A DNA stretch of 64,000 nucleotides from a bacterium. GTDB taxonomy: Bacteria > UBA8248. Numbering within the stretch: the stretch's first letter is position 1; each line of letters begins with the position of its first letter. Where the stretch lies: assembly GCA_963692865.2 (NCBI GenBank), contig OY843592.1, forward strand, positions 512,001 through 576,000. Reading direction: 5' to 3'. The notes under the pieces are model-generated. The model was not told where the DNA came from and did not search any database. It saw only the letters and a list, made by a program, of their open reading frames with translations. The translations under genes and the position numbers were made by a program. Of this stretch, positions 10,824 through 44,605 are shown piece after piece.

Positions 10824-12179
10824 CTCCGCCTGGACGCGGCGCAGGGCGGTGTCGAGAGCGGAGGCGGCGCGCTCTGCTTCTTCCTCCGTCAAGACCAGCG
10901 GCGGGCTGATGGTGACGGTGTTCGAGGGACCCGCCGCGATGCCGGCGTTCTTGCCGAAGATCACGCCTTGCTCCTTCGCGTAGGCCAGCACCTTCGCCGT
11001 GGCCGCCGTGGACAGCGGCGCGCCGTCTTCTTCTACCAACTCGACGCCCCAGATGAGGCCCACGCCCCGCACGTCGCCCACGCAGGGGATGTCGGAGAGT
11101 TTGCCCAAAAGCCCGCCGAGATAAGCGCCCACCTTGGCGCCGCGCGCGGGCAATTCCTCGTCCATCATGATCTCGAGGTTCTTGAGCGAAGCCGCGCAGG
11201 CGACGGGGTGTCCGCCGTAGGTGTTTATCTGCAGGAACCCCGAGTCGCCCTCGGCGTTCAGGGCTTCGAATATCTCGTTCGTGGTCGCCGTCGCCCCGAT
11301 GGGCAGATAGGCGCTGCTCAGTCCCTTGGCCATCGTCATGATGTCCGGCTCGACCTCGTACAGATCGGAAGCGAAGAGCTGCCCCGTGCGACCGAAGCCG
11401 GTGATGACCTCATCGGCGATGAACAAGACGCCGTGGTTCCGGCACACTTCGCGCATGCGCTTCAGGTAATCCGCGGGCGGCGGTATCACCCCGCCGCCGC
11501 CGATGACGGGCTCCGCGATGAAAGCCGCCACGGTCTCGGGATCCTCGTAGCGGATGACCTCGTCCAGCTCGTCCGCGCATCTGGCGGCGAGTTCTTCCTC
11601 GGTGTCCGCGTTGCTGCGGTAGAAATAGGGCGCGCTCACGTGGATCACGCCCGGCAGGAGCGGCTCGAACATCGCGCGCCTCAGCGTCTGGCCGGTGAGG
11701 CTCGCCCCGCCGATGGTCGCCCCGTGATAGCCCTGGTGGCGGGCGATGATCTTGTACCGCCTCCCGCCGTTCAGTCGCCCGTAGGCGCGGGCCAGCTTGA
11801 TGGCCGTGTCCACCGCCTCGGAGCCGGAATTGACGAACCAGACGCGCTCGACGCCCTCGGGCAACAGGGACGCGAGCCGTTCGGCGAGCCTGGCCGCGGG
11901 CGGGTTCACCTGCGTCAGCGGATAGTAGGCCAACTCGAGCATCTGCTCGTAAGCCGCCTTGGCGACCTCGTCGCGCCCGTAGCCGATGTTCACGCACCAA
12001 AGCCCCGCCATGGCGTCGATGTATTCCCTGCCGGAGGCGTCCTGGATGGTCGAGCCACTGGCCTTGACCACGACGTCGAGGGGATTCTCCTCCATCCCGG
12101 AATGGTTCATGAGCGGATGCCAGACGTGTTCCTTGTCCATCGTCCGCAAGGATTCGGCTTCGGCTATGGCTGGATTCAT
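10812..12179 (-). CDS. class III PLP-dependent aminotransferase (omega-amino acid:pyruvate type)
   Basis: DAMAGLWC, NSGSEA, YHG, FIADEVITGFGRTG, PDIMTMAKGLSS, TYGGHP. Confidence 0.93.
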   Translation of the reverse strand: MNPAIAEAESLRTMDKEHVWHPLMNHSGMEENPLDVVVKASGSTIQDASGREYIDAMAGLWCVNIGYGRDEVAKAAYEQMLELAYYPLTQVNPPAARLAERLASLLPEGVERVWFVNSGSEAVDTAIKLARAYGRLNGGRRYKIIARHQGYHGATIGGASLTGQTLRRAMFEPLLPGVIHVSAPYFYRSNADTEEELAARCADELDEVIRYEDPETVAAFIAEPVIGGGGVIPPPADYLKRMREVCRNHGVLFIADEVITGFGRTGQLFASDLYEVEPDIMTMAKGLSSAYLPIGATATTNEIFEALNAEGDSGFLQINTYGGHPVACAASLKNLEIMMDEELPARGAKVGAYLGGLLGKLSDIPCVGDVRGVGLIWGVELVEEDGAPLSTAATAKVLAYAKEQGVIFGKNAGIAAGPSNTVTISPPLVLTEEEAERAASALDTALRRVQAESGA

Positions 12180-12274
12180 GGGAGTCCCCTCTCGGGTTTC
12201 AGCGATTCGGGATGCCATCGATTCGATGCGGAAATCTTAATCTCCAAGCAGATGCGGATCAACCGGTGGACAGG

Positions 12275-13261
12275 CTAGCCCGGCGCGTACTCCGGGTTTT
12301 CGCTCCTGATCCGAAAGGCCTGGCGTCCGACCCTCTCGATTTCGCCCTCTATCAGGTCGCCCGGCTCCAGGTATTTCCCCCAGGAGGCGGCGTTACCGGC
12401 CGGCGAGCCGGTGCCGATGATGTCGCCCGTCCGCAGCGTGGCGATTCCCGACAGATACGATACCTGCTCGGCGACCCGCCAGACCATGTCGCCCGTGGTG
12501 GCGTCCTGCCTCAGTTCGCCGTTCACCCGGAGCTTGAGCCTCAGATCGTGGGGGTCGAGTCCCTCTTCGGGCAGGAGGATATAGGGGCCGATGGGCGCGA
12601 AGCCGTCGGGCGCCTTCATGGCGTACCAGTCGATGAACTTGCCCATGTTGAGCGTCGTGCGATCGCTCATGTCGTTGAACAGGGTATAGCCGCCCACGTG
12701 GCCCATGGCGCGCTCCACGGGGATGTTTTTGCCGCCCTGTCCGATGAGCACGCCGAGTTCGAGCTCGTAGTCGAGCTTTTCCATCGAGGGATAGACCGGC
12801 ACATCGTCATACGGGCCGCTCACGCAGGTGGCGGGCTTCAGGAAACAATAGAGCGGGAGTTCCTCCTTGAAGTCATCCACCTCGGTGCGCGCCATCTCGG
12901 CGGCGTGGGCCACGTAGTTCCTCGCCATGCAGAACAGCGTGTCCGGGACGACGGGAGGAAGAATCTCGACTTCTTCGGGTTCATAGACCACCTGCATCCC
13001 GTCGAAGCGAACCGGGTCTTTTTGGCTCTCGTTCGCTTCGAGCGCTTCGAGAGCCTCCTCGGCGAGAGGGCGGTTCAACTCCAGGTCCTCGATGAACTCC
13101 TCGCAATCACCGGGAACCTCGGCCTCGACGCGATCCATGGCCTCCGCCGCCGACTCCTCCTCCAGCGACAAGGCGTAGGCCAGCTTGAGATCGGCGATTT
13201 TCTCCCCGAACAAGACGCCGATGCGCGCCTCGCCCGCCAGGCTGAACGTACAGATTCGCAT
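12275..13261 (-). CDS. fumarylacetoacetate hydrolase family protein
   Basis: RNYVAHAAEM, FLKP, LDYELELGVLIG, NDMSDR, K..DGFAPIGP, GDIIGTGSPAG. Confidence 0.93.
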   Translation of the reverse strand: MRICTFSLAGEARIGVLFGEKIADLKLAYALSLEEESAAEAMDRVEAEVPGDCEEFIEDLELNRPLAEEALEALEANESQKDPVRFDGMQVVYEPEEVEILPPVVPDTLFCMARNYVAHAAEMARTEVDDFKEELPLYCFLKPATCVSGPYDDVPVYPSMEKLDYELELGVLIGQGGKNIPVERAMGHVGGYTLFNDMSDRTTLNMGKFIDWYAMKAPDGFAPIGPYILLPEEGLDPHDLRLKLRVNGELRQDATTGDMVWRVAEQVSYLSGIATLRTGDIIGTGSPAGNAASWGKYLEPGDLIEGEIERVGRQAFRIRSENPEYAPG

Positions 13262-13392
13262 GAGGATGAGCCTCCAGGTTTCAAGCCCGCGATGAGGGGA
13301 ATCCTACCACAGCAGGGTGGACCTTGCCGCACCGCCCTTGGAAATGGAACTTGCGGGAACAACAAAGGATCTGACGCCCGCCATGACCGCTT

Positions 13393-14211
13393 TTATTCCG
13401 TCCTGTGGTGTCGCTTCAAAAAATCGAGAATCAGCCGCCGCGCCGTCTCGTCGCGCGAGAGATTGTGCGCCCGGCCCTCGAAGAGGTGAAACTCCATGTT
13501 CACGCCCCGCTCTTTGGCCCTGCGCAGACACCGGTCGGCGGGCCGGCCGCGCCGCCAAGGGTCGTCTTTGGAGTAAAACGCGAGGGCGGGCGTATCGCGC
13601 GGCAGGCGCACCCCGCGCCCGCACGTGGAGCCCGAGATGACGCGGGCGCCGAACTCATCCCCCTCATAGGAGGCGGCCGCGGTTCCGCCTTGGCTGTGGC
13701 CCATCAGGAAGAGGTTTTTCCGGTCCGCCCAGGGGGTTCTCAACAGCCGATAGGCCGCGTGGCGGATCTCTTCCTGGCGCATCCGGCCCACCCGCCTGAA
13801 CGGCGCGCCCTTGACGGCCTGGCGCAGGGAGGGAATGCAGGTCTCGGGCCGGTAGCGGCGCGCGAAGCTGTCGGGCGCGATGACGGCGTATCCCGCCCGC
13901 GCCAGAAGGCGCATATAGCGCAAGTTCCCCCGGCCGAGCCCCGAGCAGCCGTGCGCGAATACGACGGTCGGGCGTTTGTTCTTAAGGCCCGATAGTTTCG
14001 CCTGAACGAATCCGTCGCTCATCCTGCCTTCGATGAATTCATCTTTCAGTTGAATCATGAAATATGCGGAATCGAATGTGCGCCTCGCCTCATCGGCCAG
14101 ATCGAGCGTTTTGGGGTCGACCCCTCCGACACAGCCTGAGAGAAAAAAACAAATCACCAACAGGAAAACGGATTGTCGCATGATTGAAAAACCAGCGCTT
14201 TCTCTACTCAT
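13393..14211 (-). CDS. dienelactone-hydrolase-like alpha/beta hydrolase, probable lipoprotein
   Basis: HGCSG, GHSQGG and C-terminal AH. A hydrophobic stretch ends in lipobox LSGC. The true start may be the second Met. Confidence 0.8.
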   Translation of the reverse strand: MSRESAGFSIMRQSVFLLVICFFLSGCVGGVDPKTLDLADEARRTFDSAYFMIQLKDEFIEGRMSDGFVQAKLSGLKNKRPTVVFAHGCSGLGRGNLRYMRLLARAGYAVIAPDSFARRYRPETCIPSLRQAVKGAPFRRVGRMRQEEIRHAAYRLLRTPWADRKNLFLMGHSQGGTAAASYEGDEFGARVISGSTCGRGVRLPRDTPALAFYSKDDPWRRGRPADRCLRRAKERGVNMEFHLFEGRAHNLSRDETARRLILDFLKRHHRTE

Positions 14212-14217
14212 GAACCC

Positions 14218-15450
14218 CTAGACTACACCCTCATCCGTCAACTCTTGCAACTCCGCATCCGACACGCCGAGCAGGCCGCCCAAAATTTCCGCGTTGTGCT
14301 GGCCCACGAGCGGAGCGGAGGCCTCGTAGCCGCCTTCCATCTCGCTGAACTTGAAGGGAAAGCCCGGGGCTTTGGCGCCCTCCAGCCTCCCGAGGGTGGG
14401 ATGTTCGATGTCGACTATCATCCCGCGCTCCTGCATGTGGGGCCAGGCGAGGATGTCGTCGATGCTATTCACAGGCCCGCAGATGACGTCGTGCGCCCGC
14501 AGGGAGGAGACCGCCTCTTTCGTTTCGCGCCGCTTCGTCCATTCGGTGATGACGGCGTCGACCTCCGCGACCCTGCTCACGCGGCGGCTCATGTCCTCGT
14601 ACCGTTCATCGCCTATCAGGTCGGTGCGCTCGATGCCGCGCAGAATGTTGCGCCAATGCGGGTTGGTGCCCGAGGCGATGATGACCCAGCCGTCTTTCGT
14701 CTCATAGGCGTTGAACGGCGCGAGCCGCATGATGCGGTTGCCGATGCGCGGCGGGAGGCCGAGCCTTTCGTAGCAATCCATCGGCTCATCGAAGATCAGC
14801 GAGAAGATGCAGTCGATCATCGAAATGTCGATATGCTGGCCCATGCCCGTGCGCTCGCGGTGAAAGAGCGCCGTCATGACGGCGCCGAAGGCGAACGTGC
14901 CGCCCATGCTGTCGCCCAGGGCGGAGCCGGCCTTGGTGGGCGGGCCGTCTGGAAACCCCGTGAGGTTCATGAGGCCTGAGGCCGCCTGGGAGACGGCGTC
15001 GTAGCCCTTTAGCTCTGCGTCCGGCCCCGTTTGGCCGTAGCCCGTGATGGAGCAATACACCAGGGAGGGCTTGCGGGCATGGAGCGTCTCGTAGTCGATC
15101 TTGAGCCTGTTGGTGACGCCGACGGAGAAATTCTCCACCAGGATGTCCGAGCGATCCACGAGCCCGTAGAACATATCGAGACCGCGGGGGTCCTTGATGT
15201 TCAGGGTGATCGCCTTCTTCGCGCGCGTGCGCTTCAGGTAGGCCATCCCCATGTCCTCGTCCGTCTGGGGATGGTAGGAGACGCCCTTCTCGCCGATGAA
15301 GGGAGGGGAGTAGGCCACCGGGTCGCCCGTGGCCGGATTATCGATCCGGATCACCTCGGCCCCCAGTCCCGCCAGGAACAGCGTGGCCTGCGGACCCGAG
15401 AGAAACTGCGTCAGGTCCAGGACGCGAATGCCTTCGAGTGGCTTCGTCAT
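14218..15450 (-). CDS. family III CoA-transferase (CaiB/BaiF)
   Basis: PLEGIRVLDLTQFLSGP, LVENF, SITGYGQTGP, GYD, GQHIDISM, AP.VGQHN. Confidence 0.95.
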   Translation of the reverse strand: MTKPLEGIRVLDLTQFLSGPQATLFLAGLGAEVIRIDNPATGDPVAYSPPFIGEKGVSYHPQTDEDMGMAYLKRTRAKKAITLNIKDPRGLDMFYGLVDRSDILVENFSVGVTNRLKIDYETLHARKPSLVYCSITGYGQTGPDAELKGYDAVSQAASGLMNLTGFPDGPPTKAGSALGDSMGGTFAFGAVMTALFHRERTGMGQHIDISMIDCIFSLIFDEPMDCYERLGLPPRIGNRIMRLAPFNAYETKDGWVIIASGTNPHWRNILRGIERTDLIGDERYEDMSRRVSRVAEVDAVITEWTKRRETKEAVSSLRAHDVICGPVNSIDDILAWPHMQERGMIVDIEHPTLGRLEGAKAPGFPFKFSEMEGGYEASAPLVGQHNAEILGGLLGVSDAELQELTDEGVV

Positions 15451-15461
15451 GAAGAGCCGAA

Positions 15462-16004
15462 CTAGCCTTCGATCAGAATCTTCACCGCCTGGCGGGCCGC
15501 ATCGCCCGCGCGCGCGGAGATTTCCTCATCCGAGAGCGTGCTCAGGGGGTGTTCGATGACCACAGGATTGAGGTCGTTCATGCCCAACGCCGCCCTTTGC
15601 ACGTGGGCTTCGTGCAGGAAAACCTCCGTCACGACCACGGCGGTGGGCACGCCTTTTTCTTCCAGGGAGACCGCATCGTGCATACAGCACGAGGTGCAGG
15701 AGCCTCAGTCCCCGATCGCCGTCAGGACGACGTCGTTCTCCTCCACGATCTGCGCGATCAACTCGGGCGCCGCGTTCTTGGAAAAGCTCTCTTTCTTGTA
15801 GTAGCGCACCTCGGCGAAGGGGCCTTCCGCCTCCATCAGCGCCGTGGTTTTTTCGAGCAGCCTGCGCCCGTTCCACTTCGTGTTGTCCAGAACCCCGAGT
15901 TTCAAGCCCTTCAAGTTCCGGACGCGCCGCGCGGTTGGCTGGGCTTCGGCCTCGACCACCCCCCGTGGGTCGTAGACGATCTGGCCCGTGATGACGTCGC
16001 TCAT
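15462..16004 (-). CDS. UGSC-motif selenoprotein (predicted Sec at codon 100)
   Basis: ATG 16004 after AGGAGG reads MSDVITGQ...AIGD-TGA-GSCTSCCMHDAVSLEEKGVP in one frame to the stop at 15462. A hairpin follows the TGA at 15705-15707. Confidence 0.9.
15671..15699 (-). promoter_or_regulatory. Putative SECIS element
   Basis: mRNA CUGCA-cc-UCGUGC-UGUAU-GCACGA-UGCGG, with loop GU at +20/+21 from the UGA. Confidence 0.7.
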
Positions 16005-16033
16005 TGGTTTCCTCCTGTTTTCTCTCCCAAACG

Positions 16034-17128
16034 CTAAAGCAGACAGGTGCCGTCCACGCAGACGGGGCCGCCTTCGAGCGTTCTTCCGTCGATTGCCCGC
16101 AGAACCGGATTCGTCATGTGGCCCCAGCCGGGTATGAAGGCCGAAAAACGGCCCGCCTCCCCGCCCGCGACGAACAGGTGGATGTTCTCGGGACCCGGCA
16201 CGATGGGGATCCTCTCGTCCGGCTCGCGCCTGTACCACTTGGGGATGTTGCGGTTGTAGACCTTCCCGTAGCGGTGGTTGAACGAGATATCGGCGAACGT
16301 GTTCCTGGTGTGCATCCAGAGGTAACTCTTCACGTCGTTCCGCGTCCAGTTCTTCGCGCTGATGGTCGCCCCGTGCTCCGGGCTGATGACGACGGCGCAC
16401 GAGCCGCTGCTCACCGAATTGTTGTGCGCGATCGTGCTCATCGCCGAGCAGATGCTGTCGAGGATGCCCTCGGGGTCGTCCGCGATGTGGTTCGTCACGC
16501 TGTGGGGGGCTTCGGCCGCGATGGCGAAGACGGTGGAGTCCTCGGGCGCGTAGCCCTGTTCCACGTGATAGGGCGCCCAGGGGCTCGCCTCTTCGTTCTC
16601 CGCGATGCAGTAGGTGTATTTCGTGGGGCAGCCCAGCGTGCTCTTGTCCAAGTCGCCGGGCCAAGCGCCGCCGGCGTTCAAGAGCATCATCCGCACCGCG
16701 CGGCCTATCGTCGCGTTCGCGCGGTTGCCCGAGCCGAATACGTTGCAGCCCGCGTTCATGCCGATCTCGCCGCGAACCGGCCCGTTCACCACGATGAGCG
16801 GACTCGCCATGTGGGTGGTGGCCTGCACGCCGTTCAGGTTGAAGTGCGGGTCGCAAAGCGCCAACATCGCCGCGCGGACGACGGGCGCGTATTCCGCCTT
16901 GCAGCCCGCCATCACCATGTTGATCGCCAGAACCTCCCTCGTGAGGTTGCCCCAGCGCGGGGGCACGCGGCACTCGATGAGGTCTTTATCGCCCCCCAGG
17001 GCCGCGACGGCGGCGTCTATCTTCTCGGGCGTGGGCGGGACGACGGGAAGCCCGTCCGAGAATCCCTGCTCGTAGTAGTACTCCACCAGATCGACTTCCT
17101 GGTCGACTATCTGCGTCGTCTGCGGCAT
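16034..17128 (-). CDS. Uncharacterised protein of the family usually found with UGSC proteins, with C-terminal CxxxxC
   Basis: G(F/W)SDGLPVVPPT, AINMVMAGC, NGP, RANATIGRA, AENEEASPW. Ends CVDGTCLL. Confidence 0.8.
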   Translation of the reverse strand: MPQTTQIVDQEVDLVEYYYEQGFSDGLPVVPPTPEKIDAAVAALGGDKDLIECRVPPRWGNLTREVLAINMVMAGCKAEYAPVVRAAMLALCDPHFNLNGVQATTHMASPLIVVNGPVRGEIGMNAGCNVFGSGNRANATIGRAVRMMLLNAGGAWPGDLDKSTLGCPTKYTYCIAENEEASPWAPYHVEQGYAPEDSTVFAIAAEAPHSVTNHIADDPEGILDSICSAMSTIAHNNSVSSGSCAVVISPEHGATISAKNWTRNDVKSYLWMHTRNTFADISFNHRYGKVYNRNIPKWYRREPDERIPIVPGPENIHLFVAGGEAGRFSAFIPGWGHMTNPVLRAIDGRTLEGGPVCVDGTCLL

Positions 17129-17243
17129 GCCGAATCACCCCTGCTCGTCGTTTTCCAAAAATCCATCATAAACCGAATCCCGCCAAAGAAAAAGACGGGG
17201 GAATGGAAAGGAGGTAACAATACCTCTTTGGAATCACGTGTTC

Positions 17244-17894
17244 TCACACATCCGGAAAGAGCGTTTCCGCGTCCTTGAGCGCGCCTTCGGCCTGCTCGGG
17301 GGTGAGGCCCTTCACGCCCGAGAGGTCGACGCCGCGCAGGTCGGCGAGTTCCAGATCGGCGTCGTCGACGAGCGCGCCCGAGAGGTTCGCGCCCCCGAGT
17401 TTCGTCCGCTGGAGCGAGGCGCCGCGCAGGTCGGCGCCGCCGAGGTCCGCGCCCGTCAAATCCGCGAACTTGAGAGCGGCGGACATCATGTTCGCCCCGG
17501 CCATCCGCGCATTGGTGAGGTTCGCCCCCTCGAGGCTCGACTGGAACAAGTCGGCTCCTTCGAGACTGGCGCCGGCGAGGTCCGCGCCATCCAGGTTCGC
17601 CCATTGCGCGTTGGCGCGGAAGAGGCGCGCTTCGCGCAAATCCGCCTTGGAGAGGTTCGCCATGAACAGGCTGACGGTTTCGAGATTCGCGCCCGAAAAG
17701 TCCGCGCGCTCCCCTCTCGCTCCCGAACTCTGGAGCCACTTGCCGTGGGCTTCGATTTTTTCGGCGAAAAGCGCCTCCTGCTCCGCCTGCTCCGGCGCCA
17801 TGGGCAGGCCGAAGCCGCCGCCCGAAGCGGGCGGTCCGCCCACGGGCGGAGAGTCGTTCTTTTGCGTGAACCAGCCGAAAATCTTCTTGAGGAT
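17244..17894 (-). CDS. pentapeptide repeat protein
   Basis: Many A(D/N)Lxx repeats. The best RBS (GAGGTG) precedes an in-frame ATC at 17894; alternative GTG start at 17843. Confidence 0.85.
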   Translation of the reverse strand: MLKKIFGWFTQKNDSPPVGGPPASGGGFGLPMAPEQAEQEALFAEKIEAHGKWLQSSGARGERADFSGANLETVSLFMANLSKADLREARLFRANAQWANLDGADLAGASLEGADLFQSSLEGANLTNARMAGANMMSAALKFADLTGADLGGADLRGASLQRTKLGGANLSGALVDDADLELADLRGVDLSGVKGLTPEQAEGALKDAETLFPDV

Positions 17895-18063
17895 GGCGCA
17901 CCTCGCTTTCCGAATTTCGACGCCGTACGGCTTTATGACCGAAGAGGATGAAACCGGGTTTTTCTTGCCTCAAGCCCCGGCCTTTTGTCAAACCGGCGGC
18001 GGCTTCAAACACTTTCGGGGAGCCGGGGTTCGCCCGCTCGTTAAGGCGATGCGGTTTTGTCGC

Positions 18064-18867
18064 TCATTCCCTCGGAAGGGAAACCAGAAACTCATGGCAG
18101 ATGCGCGAGAAGGCGTCGGGCCGCTCGATGAGCGCCACGTGGCCCGTACCCTCCATGACGATGAGTTGGGAACCCTCGATGCGCTCGTGGATTTCCTTCG
18201 CGTGGTGGGGGTCGACGATGAGGTCGCGGTCCGAACAGGTGATGAGCGTGGGAACCTGTATCCGGTGAAGCCGATCGAGCGTGTCTCCCTCCAGGCAGGC
18301 GCGCAGTTGCCCCTCCCAGCCCAGGTCGACGCCGGATTGCTCGGTGAGCCACTGCCTTTTCTGCTCCATTACATCGGCGTTCGCATCGTAGAACGCGTGG
18401 GAATAAAGCCCCAGGAGGCTCAGTTCCACCAAAGCCTCCCGTTCGCCGCGCGCGGCGAAGCGCATGCGGGCGCGCTGAAAGGAACCCAGCCGCGCGCAGT
18501 TTCTCGCCCAGGTGTGGTGCAGCCCCAGGCTGACGACGCGCCCCGGGTGGCGAAGCGCGAGCTCGGTGGAAATGTGCCCCCCCATCGAAAAACCCATCAC
18601 GTGGGCGCGCTCCACGCCCGCGGCGTCCAGAACGCCCGAGGCGTCATCCGCCATGTCCGCCAGGGAATACCCCGGCGCCGGCGCCGTACTCCTGCCCACC
18701 CCCCGGTTGTCGAAGACGATGCAGCGGTAATCCGCGCTCAGCAGGGGAAGCTGCGCCGACCAGAAGGTGTGGTCATGGCCCGTCCCGCTCACCAGCAGAA
18801 GGGGATGCCCCTCACCAAAGGTCTCATAGAAAATCTCCACGCCTGAGCGCAGCGTTACGAACGGCAT
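18064..18867 (-). CDS. alpha/beta fold hydrolase
   Basis: DNRGVGRS, GFSMGG, C-terminal GH. Confidence 0.9.
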   Translation of the reverse strand: MPFVTLRSGVEIFYETFGEGHPLLLVSGTGHDHTFWSAQLPLLSADYRCIVFDNRGVGRSTAPAPGYSLADMADDASGVLDAAGVERAHVMGFSMGGHISTELALRHPGRVVSLGLHHTWARNCARLGSFQRARMRFAARGEREALVELSLLGLYSHAFYDANADVMEQKRQWLTEQSGVDLGWEGQLRACLEGDTLDRLHRIQVPTLITCSDRDLIVDPHHAKEIHERIEGSQLIVMEGTGHVALIERPDAFSRICHEFLVSLPRE

Positions 18868-42858: not shown

Positions 42859-43752
42859 TTAACTCAAATCGGGCCGCTCCTCGTCCTGGTAGTGCGCGAG
42901 TCCCTTGGGCGCCGTGCCGTTGTTGCGCAGGACGTGCATGGGCGCGGGCGTGAGGGGCTTCCACTGGGTCTCCTCGGGGGGTTCGGGCCACTCGTGCGGG
43001 AGATGGCGGTAGGCGTTCGGGCCTTGGGCTTCCTCCAGATGCGCGCATACGTCGTCGCACACCGCGCGCTGGCCGATTCTATCGCCCACGTCTCCGAGCA
43101 TGCGCCCGAAGGGATACTGGATGAAGACCGCCCTCGGCACGCAGACCTTCTCCGATACTTCCGGCTGGTTACATATCGAGACGGTGGCGATTCCCAACTC
43201 TTCCAATCTTCTTTGCAGCAGGCTCACGGACCGCATGCAAAGCGGTCAGACGGGGATGAGAAAGGCCGCGTCCACGCCCTCCGCGCGCATCTTCTCGGCC
43301 ATGAGGGGGGCCGTCTTCTTCATCAGGGGGTGGAAGTTGGGCGTATAGCCCATGGTGGAGTAGAGGGTGTCGGCGAGCGCGCCGATCTTCCCCTCGCGCT
43401 CGTAGTCCAGGAAGATATCCACCGGGAACGAGACGTTCCGGTCGCGCTTCAAGTACTCGGTGTTGATGTGCAGGTGCGAGTATTCGCAATCGTCCTGGGC
43501 GGCTGTTTTCGGAATCTCGCGGTGGGTGGGGTCGCCCCAGTGCGGCTCGCGCCATTCGCGCTCATAGTCGAAGGAGACGTCTCCTTTCATGAATATGCCC
43601 GCCGTGGAGACGAGGGTGACCTTGCATTCTGAAAGTGGTTTTCCCAGCGGCGTCCAGGGCGTTTTCGCCGGGTCGGCGGGCCGCATGGCGTCGATGCGCG
43701 TTTTGCTGCCGGGGTAATAGACGTATCCGTCTACTTCCGTGATCGGTGACAT
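42859..43752 (-). CDS. GrdB/PrdB-like reductase selenoprotein B family protein (UxxC, predicted Sec at codon 169)
   Basis: ATG 43752 after AAGGAG, with LVSTAGI, DRNVSFP and GVDAAFLIPV-TGA-PLCMRSVSLLQR.LE..GIATV...PRA....PFG.MLG in one frame. A hairpin follows the TGA at 43246-43248. Confidence 0.92.
43211..43242 (-). promoter_or_regulatory. Putative SECIS element
   Basis: mRNA CUUUGCA...UGCAAAG 7-bp lower stem with an imperfect upper stem closing a CGU loop (G at +19). Confidence 0.68.
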
Positions 43753-43774
43753 GGGGTCTTGCTCCTTTACTGAA

Positions 43775-44605
43775 TCAATAATTCGTAAACAGAACGCACA
43801 GGAGTTCATTCGCCAGCTTCGCGTCGCCTTCGATCGTAAGGCGGCCGGCGGCCTCCATGGCGCTGCGCTTCGCGCGCCCGTAGAGCAAGAGGAAGTGCGC
43901 CTCGCCGTCCGCAGTGATCACGGCGTCGTGCGTGCCGGACGTGTGGGCGGACTCCTCCGCCTTCTCGCCGGCGACGGCGAGCGTCCACGCACGATCGGGC
44001 GTCGTGGAGCGGAACAGGAAACGGCCGGCGAAGGGCGGGTTCTCGCGGACGCCGAACAGGCGGCTCTGGCTCGCGGGGAGAAAACTCATGACGCCCTCCA
44101 CGCCCTCTTCGGAGACGCAGGCCTCCGCGTCCTCGCCGTAGCGGACGTCCCAATCGTGCGCCACGAGTTCGACGAGCCTGAGCCCGATCCAGGCGTCGAG
44201 CCGCGTCAGCCCGCGGGGATGAAAGCCGAGCTTGCCGAGATCGTCCGTGGCGATGTCCGCGAGCGCGTCGTTCACCTGGGAGGCCGTGGCGTCGAACGCG
44301 TCCATCATCTCTTCCCTCGGCAGGGCCATGAGTTCCTCGCCCCTGGCGGCGCGGATGGCGAAAAACTCCTTCGTGTTGCTCCCGTAGGGGGGTTCCGGCG
44401 GCAGGCCTTCCAGGGCGCGGCGGATCGAGTTCGTGTAAAAATCGGCCCCCGTCGCCAAGTGGGAGACGGCGTGCCGCGCCCGCCAGCCGGGACAGTAGGT
44501 GTCCACCTCCCAGCGCGCGTCCGAAAAGGCGCGCCAGCAGGCCGAGAGGCGTTCGGTTTCGGTTTTCACCAGGGCGACTCGGGAAAGTTGTTCTTCAGGA
44601 CTCAC
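43775..44605 (-). CDS. maleylpyruvate isomerase (MDMPI)/DinB superfamily protein
   Basis: TYCPGW....VSHL and ELVAHDWDV metal motifs, plus an SCP2-like tail LLLYGR...GRLTIEGD. Confidence 0.82.
   Translation of the reverse strand: MSPEEQLSRVALVKTETERLSACWRAFSDARWEVDTYCPGWRARHAVSHLATGADFYTNSIRRALEGLPPEPPYGSNTKEFFAIRAARGEELMALPREEMMDAFDATASQVNDALADIATDDLGKLGFHPRGLTRLDAWIGLRLVELVAHDWDVRYGEDAEACVSEEGVEGVMSFLPASQSRLFGVRENPPFAGRFLFRSTTPDRAWTLAVAGEKAEESAHTSGTHDAVITADGEAHFLLLYGRAKRSAMEAAGRLTIEGDAKLANELLCVLFTNY

Follow-up and report, generated by a model that had tools for sequence, protein, structure and literature searches.

A UGSC-family selenoprotein and a conserved partner protein as candidate subunits of a thiol/selenol redox enzyme, with an acyl-coenzyme A context

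The UGSC family was counted in 2008 as one of the major families of selenoproteins in metagenomes from the ocean and fresh water, with its members among the most abundant selenoproteins of the ocean, and the accessible part of that article gives no function for them (PMC2398784, PLoS Genet 2008). A 2026 review, in its accessible part, still lists the family without function (PMC13188914), and a first-pass annotation of the DNA studied here, which had described UGSC proteins as lacking an assigned function, agrees with the available text of both sources and of a third one (PMC9312934). The DNA in question, hereafter the window, is a stretch of 64,000 nucleotides (nt) from a bacterium of the lineage UBA8248 (assembly GCA_963692865.2, contig OY843592.1, positions 512,001 to 576,000 of the forward strand). 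It contains, one after the other, the genes of a 364-amino-acid (aa) protein, hereafter the partner, of a UGSC selenoprotein and of a family III coenzyme A (CoA) transferase. The partner and UGSC are tentatively read here, with close to even confidence, as the two subunits of a single cytoplasmic enzyme of thiol/selenol redox chemistry, reduced through a C-terminal tail of the partner and thioredoxin and placed, in this lineage, in an acyl-CoA context. In short, the best reading is that of a thioredoxin-linked, Stickland-like selenol/thiol reductase, often found in acyl-CoA contexts.

Three groups of described systems resemble parts of this locus: (i) the Stickland reductases; (ii) class I ribonucleotide reductase; and (iii) the family III CoA-transferases. 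In the Stickland reductases, GrdB, GrdF or GrdH works with GrdE, and PrdB with PrdA, as a two-protein, dithiol-fed enzyme to which the pair can be likened. Like UGSC, GrdB and PrdB have selenocysteine (Sec) after a hydrophobic (buried) strand in a UxxC-type motif, but UGSC covers the Sec-bearing part only and scores far under the cut-offs of their families. Carriers of the pair include Nitrospinota, Acidobacteriota, Alpha- and Betaproteobacteria, which we take to be mostly aerobes and not amino-acid fermenters. The R1 subunit of class I ribonucleotide reductase has a C-terminal cysteine pair; the partner, as the proposed large catalytic subunit, similarly has a Cys-x4-Cys arrangement in its last eight residues, which is conserved in its orthologue group. 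However, R1 has no sequence or fold relation to the partner, the shuttle role of the tail is putative, and most of the partner family is tailless. As for the family III CoA-transferases (CaiB, BaiF, Frc, succinyl-CoA:mesaconate and succinate-glutarate transferases), which in several pathways supply the CoA esters that then undergo an unusual reduction or elimination, the protein of the locus matches their Pfam family PF02515 over its full length, but it falls under every equivalog cut-off and belongs to a clade of its own, tied to the UGSC pair.

Partner and UGSC genes stay together over a wide range of bacteria. A scan of one genome per species gave 584 pattern matches. A relative is encoded at 570 of them, and the best 80 of these 570 (73-98% identity to the query) were studied as loci; they belong to Nitrospinota, Tectomicrobia, Chloroflexota, Acidobacteriota, SAR324, Rokubacteria, Methylomirabilales, Alpha- and Betaproteobacteria. 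In 76 of the 80 loci, UGSC lies downstream of the partner and shares its strand; these include one with remnants only (L017), one cut at the contig end (L070) and two in which UGSC is about 1.1 kb off (L042 and L044); no UGSC gene was found near the partner in the remaining four (L020, L056, L059 and L075). The genome to which the window belongs has 8 UGSC genes, with one TGA each, and 15 partner paralogues. Seven of the eight UGSC genes adjoin, or are fused to, a partner paralogue, and for the eighth the distance to four tandem partners is about 3 kb (contig C1, UGSC at 682928..683341 and partners at 686117..690226).

The two proteins also occur as one chain. Of the family representatives (the best 149 after clustering at 50%), 39 contain a UGSC-like stretch within the partner chain, and Pfam confirmed UGSC in five of the ten long forms sent. 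In some fusions the whole UGSC domain is N-terminal, while in others the C-terminal half of UGSC stands at the N-terminus, as would be expected if the gene caller had begun past the TGA of a fusion. Five partners carry the N-terminal half of UGSC at their C-terminus, ending exactly ahead of the Sec position; with UGSC pieces at either terminus, both fusion orders exist. One fusion is found in the genome itself (locus L088, C1:326630..329248), a UGSC::partner protein of 536 aa that keeps its TGA in a GVUGGC motif; a second partner gene and the gene of a flavin adenine dinucleotide (FAD)-dependent oxidoreductase come next. The two-component unit proposed in the first-pass annotation is thus supported, the two proteins behaving like two parts of one enzyme, by adjacency in 76/80 loci and fusion in 39/149 representatives. 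A fusion of UGSC with a domain called Unknown_1 is mentioned in the accessible part of the 2008 article (PMC2398784), and this domain may be identical to the partner family.

Two loci differ from the usual arrangement. In a member of the Longimicrobiales (L017:7130..7577), an intact partner gene is followed by UGSC fragments (residues 6-38 and 140-173) and by residues 1-74 of the CoA-transferase, so that the downstream genes look decayed. Another locus (L062) holds two partner-UGSC pairs within 13 kb (268..1925 and 6001..7713), the second of which, with identities to the query of 39% and 31%, has no cysteine tail.

The UGSC gene of the window is a full member of its family, with no difference in the gene itself: it scores above the cut-offs of both PF24696 (E 1.9e-58, 197.8 bits, cut-off 25) and NF041046 (157.9 bits, cut-off 125). 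Its in-frame TGA, in the context ...TAIGDUGSCTSCCMHD..., is present in 75/75 sequences (74 loci and the window) that match across that position, and the GDUGSCTSC core is invariant in them; six loci have no match there (L017, L020, L056, L059, L070 and L075). The hairpin after the UGA has 93.3% of its cells paired over 52 distinct sequences, versus 8-54% for slid controls. Five of its eight pairs never vary, and one pair is found as GC, as GU and, in two sequences, as AU; since the peptide is conserved and most pairs are invariant, the covariation support is slight. A single-sequence fold downstream of the UGA is no better than shuffles (z -0.11), and an Rfam search over positions 13000..18500 matched no family, the UGA hairpin included. 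The genome (4.15 Mb, 8 contigs) has selB (391.7 bits), selA (567.2 bits) and selD (334.6 bits), each scoring above its cut-off, as well as two tRNA-Sec genes (C1:1207500..1207596 and C4:29715..29811). Recoding of this UGA as Sec is more than chance. Among more distant full-length UGSC homologues, 44 have Cys instead of Sec at the first place of the motif, and a phmmer search of PDB sequences with UGSC gave matches at chance level only.

Two details of the selenocysteine machinery can be added. The tRNA-Sec genes sit on different contigs of an assembly rated 6.69% contaminated, and one of them may be foreign or a duplicate. The selD gene (C1:65915..66877) has one in-frame TGA of its own and would encode a selenoprotein SelD.

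The nearest detectable relatives of UGSC are selenoproteins of the GRDB family. Four such proteins, three short forms and one full-length GrdB-like form, are encoded in the genome, each with one TGA at a matching place; an hhalign comparison of the UGSC alignment with the four of them gave a probability of 54.7% (E 1.2e-4, 78 columns) with Sec aligned on Sec, and a LEExG(I/V)(P/A)T stretch past Sec is common to UGSC and all four. At E <= 0.1, 39 of 45 UGSC homologues match the PrdB model and 16 of 45 match the GrdB model, all weakly, and UGSC itself has no match to PF07355 at E <= 0.01. Taken as sequence similarity, this probably reflects distant homology of the Sec-bearing domain, not membership of the GrdB/PrdB families. 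One of the four, a PrdB-like protein, is encoded in the window (42940..43809, minus strand), with its TGA at residue 188 in a UPLC motif (...FLIPVUPLCMRS...).

The partner belongs to a large family without a name. It has no match at E <= 0.01 in Pfam and NCBIfam, none at E <= 10 in a phmmer search of PDB sequences, and only unannotated clusters, with no usable named match, in the ESM Atlas. Of 8,000 scored proteins, 7,506 fall into the family at E <= 0.001, a lower bound on its size; a separate count gave 4,877 clusters at 50% identity, and its members are called 'hypothetical protein' in the databases, apart from one automatic UniRef label, 'Thiol-disulfide oxidoreductase'. In 66 family representatives, conservation of at least 93% is seen at residues that include D25-G-L-P, C76, N138, R143, E177 and W184, and in the same set C76 (97%) and C174 (91%) are the only family-wide cysteines; C244 is 100% conserved within the orthologue group (119 sequences). 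That only C76 and C174 are conserved argues against an iron-sulphur cluster and for thiol chemistry. An iron-sulphur cluster was considered as a candidate and ruled out, as a 4Fe-4S cluster needs three conserved cysteine ligands and two are present. One relative of the partner (P0203) is fused to a thioredoxin-reductase-like Pyr_redox_2 domain identified with Pfam.

An AlphaFold2 model of the partner reached a predicted local distance difference test score (pLDDT) of 94.5 and a predicted template-modelling score (pTM) of 0.93 with a 75-row alignment, and a pLDDT of 29.9 from the single sequence. The best Foldseek match in the PDB was class I fumarate hydratase (E 5.1e-4, probability 0.87, template-modelling (TM) score 0.25, root-mean-square deviation (rmsd) 17). 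With VIA-align, the best of 48,161 chains gave Z 6.2 (rmsd 3.5 over 92 aligned residues); among the Foldseek matches, the best was a chorismate-mutase/YjgF-like one with Z 6.4, over residues about 203-339, and the class I fumarate hydratase-like chain 7xky_A gave Z 5.4 (rmsd 5.5, 190 aligned residues). All these scores are in a range that unrelated folds commonly reach, according to the notes of the tools themselves, and a new fold is not claimed for the partner because its N-terminal half was scarcely probed.

The tail of the partner marks one group of orthologues. The tail-bearing orthologues from the loci all end in C-x-[DG]-[GD]-x-C-x-x; a CxxGxC motif stands at the C-terminus of 109/119 close homologues (73-96% identity) and any Cys pair in 116/119, with C357 and C362 each 98% conserved in these 119 orthologue-level sequences, whereas in the family representatives the figures are 2/149 and 5/149. 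The tail is therefore the hallmark of one highly conserved orthologue group, not of the partner family, and it is within this group that the tail cysteines pointed out in the first-pass annotation proved to be conserved. In the model it forms a short beta-hairpin around the D-G turn (strands 356-358 and 361-363) of lower confidence (block pLDDT 77 and 68), which fits a mobile element whose two cysteines would face each other. Given that most family members have no tail, electrons must enter those otherwise, for instance through a Pyr_redox_2 fusion.

The acyl-CoA context rests on the third gene and on other pairs of the genome. The CoA-transferase matches PF02515 (CoA_transf_3) with E 3.4e-113, its residues 5-386 covering profile positions 1-366 of 366; all seven of its NCBIfam matches are below cut-off, the best with 281.8 bits (cut-off 750) and 274.2 bits (cut-off 700). 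It contains the sequence ALGDS, which presumably resembles the active-site region of Frc. Counted at >=45% identity, a CoA-transferase follows the pair in 24/80 loci (L001-L013, with L012 truncated, L022, L023, L036, L063, L066, L068, L072, L078 and L079, as well as L018 and L019, in which it lies two genes further on). In a quick IQ-TREE tree of 38 rows, from which seven near-identical rows had been dropped beforehand and which has support values of the Shimodaira-Hasegawa-like approximate likelihood ratio test (SH-aLRT) only, 15 adjacent copies, two nearby copies and one further paralogue of the genome form one clade on a long branch (SH-aLRT 100). This clade spans Nitrospinota, Rokubacteria, Burkholderiales and Rhodospirillaceae, and 16 of the 17 other CoA-transferase paralogues of the genome fall outside it. 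The link between UGSC and the CoA-transferase drawn in the first-pass annotation, which had also asked for a neighbourhood analysis of their co-occurrence, accordingly holds in part: it recurs across four lineages, with a single clade, but in a minority of loci, and it is not obligatory.

Three of the eight pairs of the genome, that of the window included, touch acyl-CoA enzymes. At a second locus (L094, C1:145374..149086), a tripartite ATP-independent periplasmic (TRAP) transporter, another family III CoA-transferase and an enoyl-CoA hydratase precede UGSC, here in a UGSS form, and a partner, and a third pair lies downstream of two acyl-CoA dehydrogenases. Of the other pairs, one lies between branched-chain amino-acid permeases and an amidase. 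The genome has 18 CoA-transferase genes in its 4.15 Mb, and chance alone would hardly put two of the eight pairs immediately beside one, the rough estimate being about 1.5% per pair.

A mechanism that would unite these features can be outlined as follows. The partner would be the large subunit and would bind the substrate, with the family-wide residues D25, C76, N138, R143, C174 and E177 at hand. Sec100 of UGSC would be the nucleophile and attack a carbon adjacent to a carboxylate or thioester, in the way of Sec in GrdB and PrdB, and Cys103 of UGSC would then resolve the adduct, leaving a selenenylsulfide. The flexible C357-x-D-G-x-C362 hairpin of the partner would re-reduce the UGSC site and would itself be reduced by thioredoxin, in the manner of the cysteines at the C-terminus of class I ribonucleotide reductase. 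Lastly, the dedicated family III CoA-transferase, encoded directly downstream, would make or recycle the thioester.

A bolder form of this proposal, which we regard as distinctly unlikely, is that the pair would be a thioredoxin-driven selenoenzyme of a class not described before, its large subunit having an unsolved fold, and would bring Stickland-type chemistry (selenolate attack at the alpha-carbon and enolate release) to widespread non-fermenting bacteria. There it would act on acyl-CoA thioesters instead of free amino acids and would strip CoA-activated organic acids reductively of an alpha-substituent. If it were true, the 15 partners and 8 UGSC proteins of the genome would form an enzyme family diversified by substrate, much like the acyl-CoA dehydrogenases, and such a family would explain the abundance of UGSC in ocean and fresh-water metagenomes.

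Several results weigh against the two-subunit, Stickland-like reading. On the side of UGSC, the matches to the GrdB and PrdB models (TIGR01917 and TIGR04483) have E 0.006 and reach 15.6 bits (cut-off 602.2) and 16 bits (cut-off 300); the hhalign probability falls to 2% when the comparison is with a single sequence; and the UGSS paralogue (L094) is devoid of the resolving Cys. Furthermore, a full-text literature search found no functional study of UGSC and no biochemical datum on it. On the side of the partner, the model has no clear solved relative, its N-terminal half being scarcely covered, and, in contrast to GrdE and PrdA, the partner has no match to these proteins or to any Pfam family and no sign of a pyruvoyl proprotein. 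Its tail is absent from nearly the whole wider family and is, hence, not the general entry point of electrons. As for the CoA-transferase, it is absent beside the pair in 56/80 loci, and five carrier genomes in which no copy adjoins the pair contain nothing closer than 36-40% identity, versus 45-92% within the clade (an identity criterion, not a tree); 56/80 loci and 5/5 genomes without a close copy mean that CoA activation is not required by the pair. Finally, the 80 loci are the most query-like ones, so the counts lean to close relatives.

The same observations can be distributed differently between the two proteins. The partner could be, by itself, a whole Cys76/Cys174 oxidoreductase or isomerase, with UGSC as a dedicated redoxin whose Sec never touches the substrate; electrons would then pass from thioredoxin reductase or thioredoxin to U100/C103 of UGSC, from there to the tail and on to the active-site cysteines, much as NrdH or thioredoxin serves ribonucleotide reductase. 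This is not likely, though it deserves serious attention: the two family-wide cysteines sit in the partner, a UxxC motif is typical of redoxins, UGSC also has natural Cys forms, pairing and fusion suit a carrier as well as a catalytic subunit, and UGSC is a small protein that Zhang and Gladyshev (2008) predicted to be thioredoxin-fold-like, according to the accessible part of their article (PMC2398784). Nevertheless, the nearest detectable relatives of UGSC, GrdB and PrdB, are catalytic Sec subunits and not carriers, and a TGA in 75/75 orthologues would be unusual, even if possible, for a mere carrier. A separate carrier is also less necessary in a family with a member fused to a thioredoxin-reductase-like domain.

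Two further explanations take the pair out of a substrate pathway altogether. One, which we consider improbable, makes it a general protective system (a peroxide, disulfide or electrophile reductase), with the CoA-transferase and the other neighbours as chance passengers of a housekeeping operon. The very high identity across phyla (73-98% in 80 loci) would suit such a role, as would the variation of neighbours by lineage (amidase, LarA-like enzyme, pyrroloquinoline quinone (PQQ) dehydrogenase, sel genes) and the AhpD-like selenoprotein pair just downstream in this clade. Chance passengers are, however, at odds with linked CoA-transferases that form one clade over four lineages, while the 15 partner and 8 UGSC paralogues look like substrate diversification and 3/8 pairs adjoin acyl-CoA enzymes. 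The other one, which appears highly improbable, places the pair in selenium metabolism (delivery, recycling or detoxification), which would explain the selA, selB and Ndh-SelD neighbours in proteobacteria; selA-like genes are found near the pair in 6/80 loci, selB-like genes in 5/80 and a Pyr_redox_2-AIRS (SelD-type) fusion in 3/80, in neighbour clusters made with a rough gene caller and a filter on third-codon-position G+C content (GC3), one representative per cluster being checked with Pfam. But sel genes commonly adjoin the genes of client selenoproteins, in this genome the pair is found at 0.53 Mb but selA and selB at 1.27 Mb, and a role in selenium metabolism sits poorly with the Cys forms of UGSC. 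The reading of partner and UGSC as two subunits of one redox enzyme is the one preferred here.

What this analysis adds to the description of the family is: (i) the tail, which marks one orthologue group; (ii) the monophyly of the pair-linked CoA-transferases; (iii) the acyl-CoA context of other paralogous pairs and the fusions in both orders; and (iv) the profile alignment of UGSC to GRDB-family selenoproteins of the same genome. Through its steady association with the partner, UGSC is no longer an orphan motif but part of a putative two-subunit enzyme open to testing, and the locus offers experimental handles, such as a tail dithiol that can be mutated and a CoA-transferase clade whose substrates could reveal the pathway. 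In addition, the natural Cys forms of UGSC, the Advenella type among them, can be expressed without selenocysteine machinery, and the family has cultured carriers (Reyranella and Advenella). If the Stickland-like reading is true, the chemistry of anaerobic amino-acid fermenters would be widened to common environmental bacteria.

The features of the locus are collected in Table 1. The layout given in the first-pass annotation (364 aa ending in CVDGTCLL, 29 nt, 180 aa with UGSCTSCC, 11 nt, CoA-transferase) is correct in every number, and to it can be added the strand, which is minus for all three genes. The successive gaps from the partner through to the aminotransferase are 29, 11, 6, 131 and 56 nt, the first two (16005..16033 and 15451..15461) being read directly from the sequence, as were the AGGAGG-type sites ahead of the partner and UGSC genes.

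Table 1. Features of the partner-UGSC locus and their positions in the window.
Feature	Position (nt)	Strand	Remarks
Partner gene, 364 aa	16034..17128	minus	ends ...PVCVDGTCLL; unnamed family
Tail codons C357-V-D-G-T-C362-L-L in partner gene	16037..16060	minus	putative redox shuttle
UGSC-family selenoprotein gene, 180 aa and stop (TAG 15462..15464)	15462..16004	minus	motif U100-G-S-C103-T-S-C106-C107
In-frame TGA, selenocysteine, residue 100 of UGSC	15705..15707	minus	TGA in 75/75 sequences
Hairpin like a selenocysteine insertion sequence (SECIS), 8 pairs, 5-nt loop	15674..15694	minus	begins 13 nt past the U of UGA
Family III CoA-transferase, 410 aa	14218..15450	minus	PF02515; clade recurring after the pair
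Dienelactone-hydrolase-like alpha/beta hydrolase	13393..14211	minus	6 nt past CoA-transferase; lineage-specific passenger
Fumarylacetoacetate-hydrolase-family protein	12275..13261	minus	lineage-specific passenger
Class III aminotransferase	10812..12218	minus	last gene ahead of terminator-like hairpin
Terminator-like hairpin directly past aminotransferase stop	10776..10793	minus	consensus scan; probable downstream limit of transcription unit
Terminator-like hairpin after upstream pentapeptide-repeat gene (17244..17843)	17211..17226	minus	consensus scan, weak; probable upstream limit

A consensus scan found no promoter-like sites on the minus strand inside this unit, and it gave 12 sites versus 9.5 +/- 3.5 in shuffles; the promoter and terminator evidence is weak, because the totals of the scan do not exceed those of shuffles. 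In two metatranscriptome runs, 0.05-0.06 of the sampled words were present, and the contigs that cover parts of the partner and UGSC genes are short and come from relatives (about 88-95% alike). One contig of 245 nt, from an RNA library and belonging to a relative, spans the partner-UGSC junction (15884..16129). These contigs are a hint of co-transcription of the two genes and prove neither transcription nor a single transcript.

The genes around the pair differ among lineages. The neighbour is an amidase in Tectomicrobia and an MpaB/Lcp-like oxygenase in Stellaceae; Vicinamibacteria and other Acidobacteriota have a PQQ dehydrogenase, a glycosyltransferase and a LarA-like enzyme; Burkholderiales have selA, a LysR regulator and an AEC transporter; and Alphaproteobacteria have selA, selB and an Ndh-SelD-type fusion. 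More precisely, selA and selB stand upstream of the pair in three alphaproteobacterial loci (L051, L057 and L058) and three betaproteobacterial ones (L063, L078 and L079), and the Pyr_redox_2-AIRS (Ndh-SelD type) fusion lies downstream of the pair in L051, L057 and L058.

In the window itself, a lipoprotein-type signal (...FFLSGCVGG) stands at the start of the dienelactone-hydrolase-like protein, whose probable export makes it odd in a cytoplasmic pathway. A second selenoprotein gene follows in the same gene row (9867..10538, minus strand): its product of 223 aa, with one in-frame TGA, has a C-N-Y-U motif of the CxxU type and looks AhpD-like, and a Sec-less paralogue lies directly downstream (about 9200..9870, minus strand). 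This AhpD-like gene pair also comes after the aminotransferase in close relatives (neighbour cluster c11).

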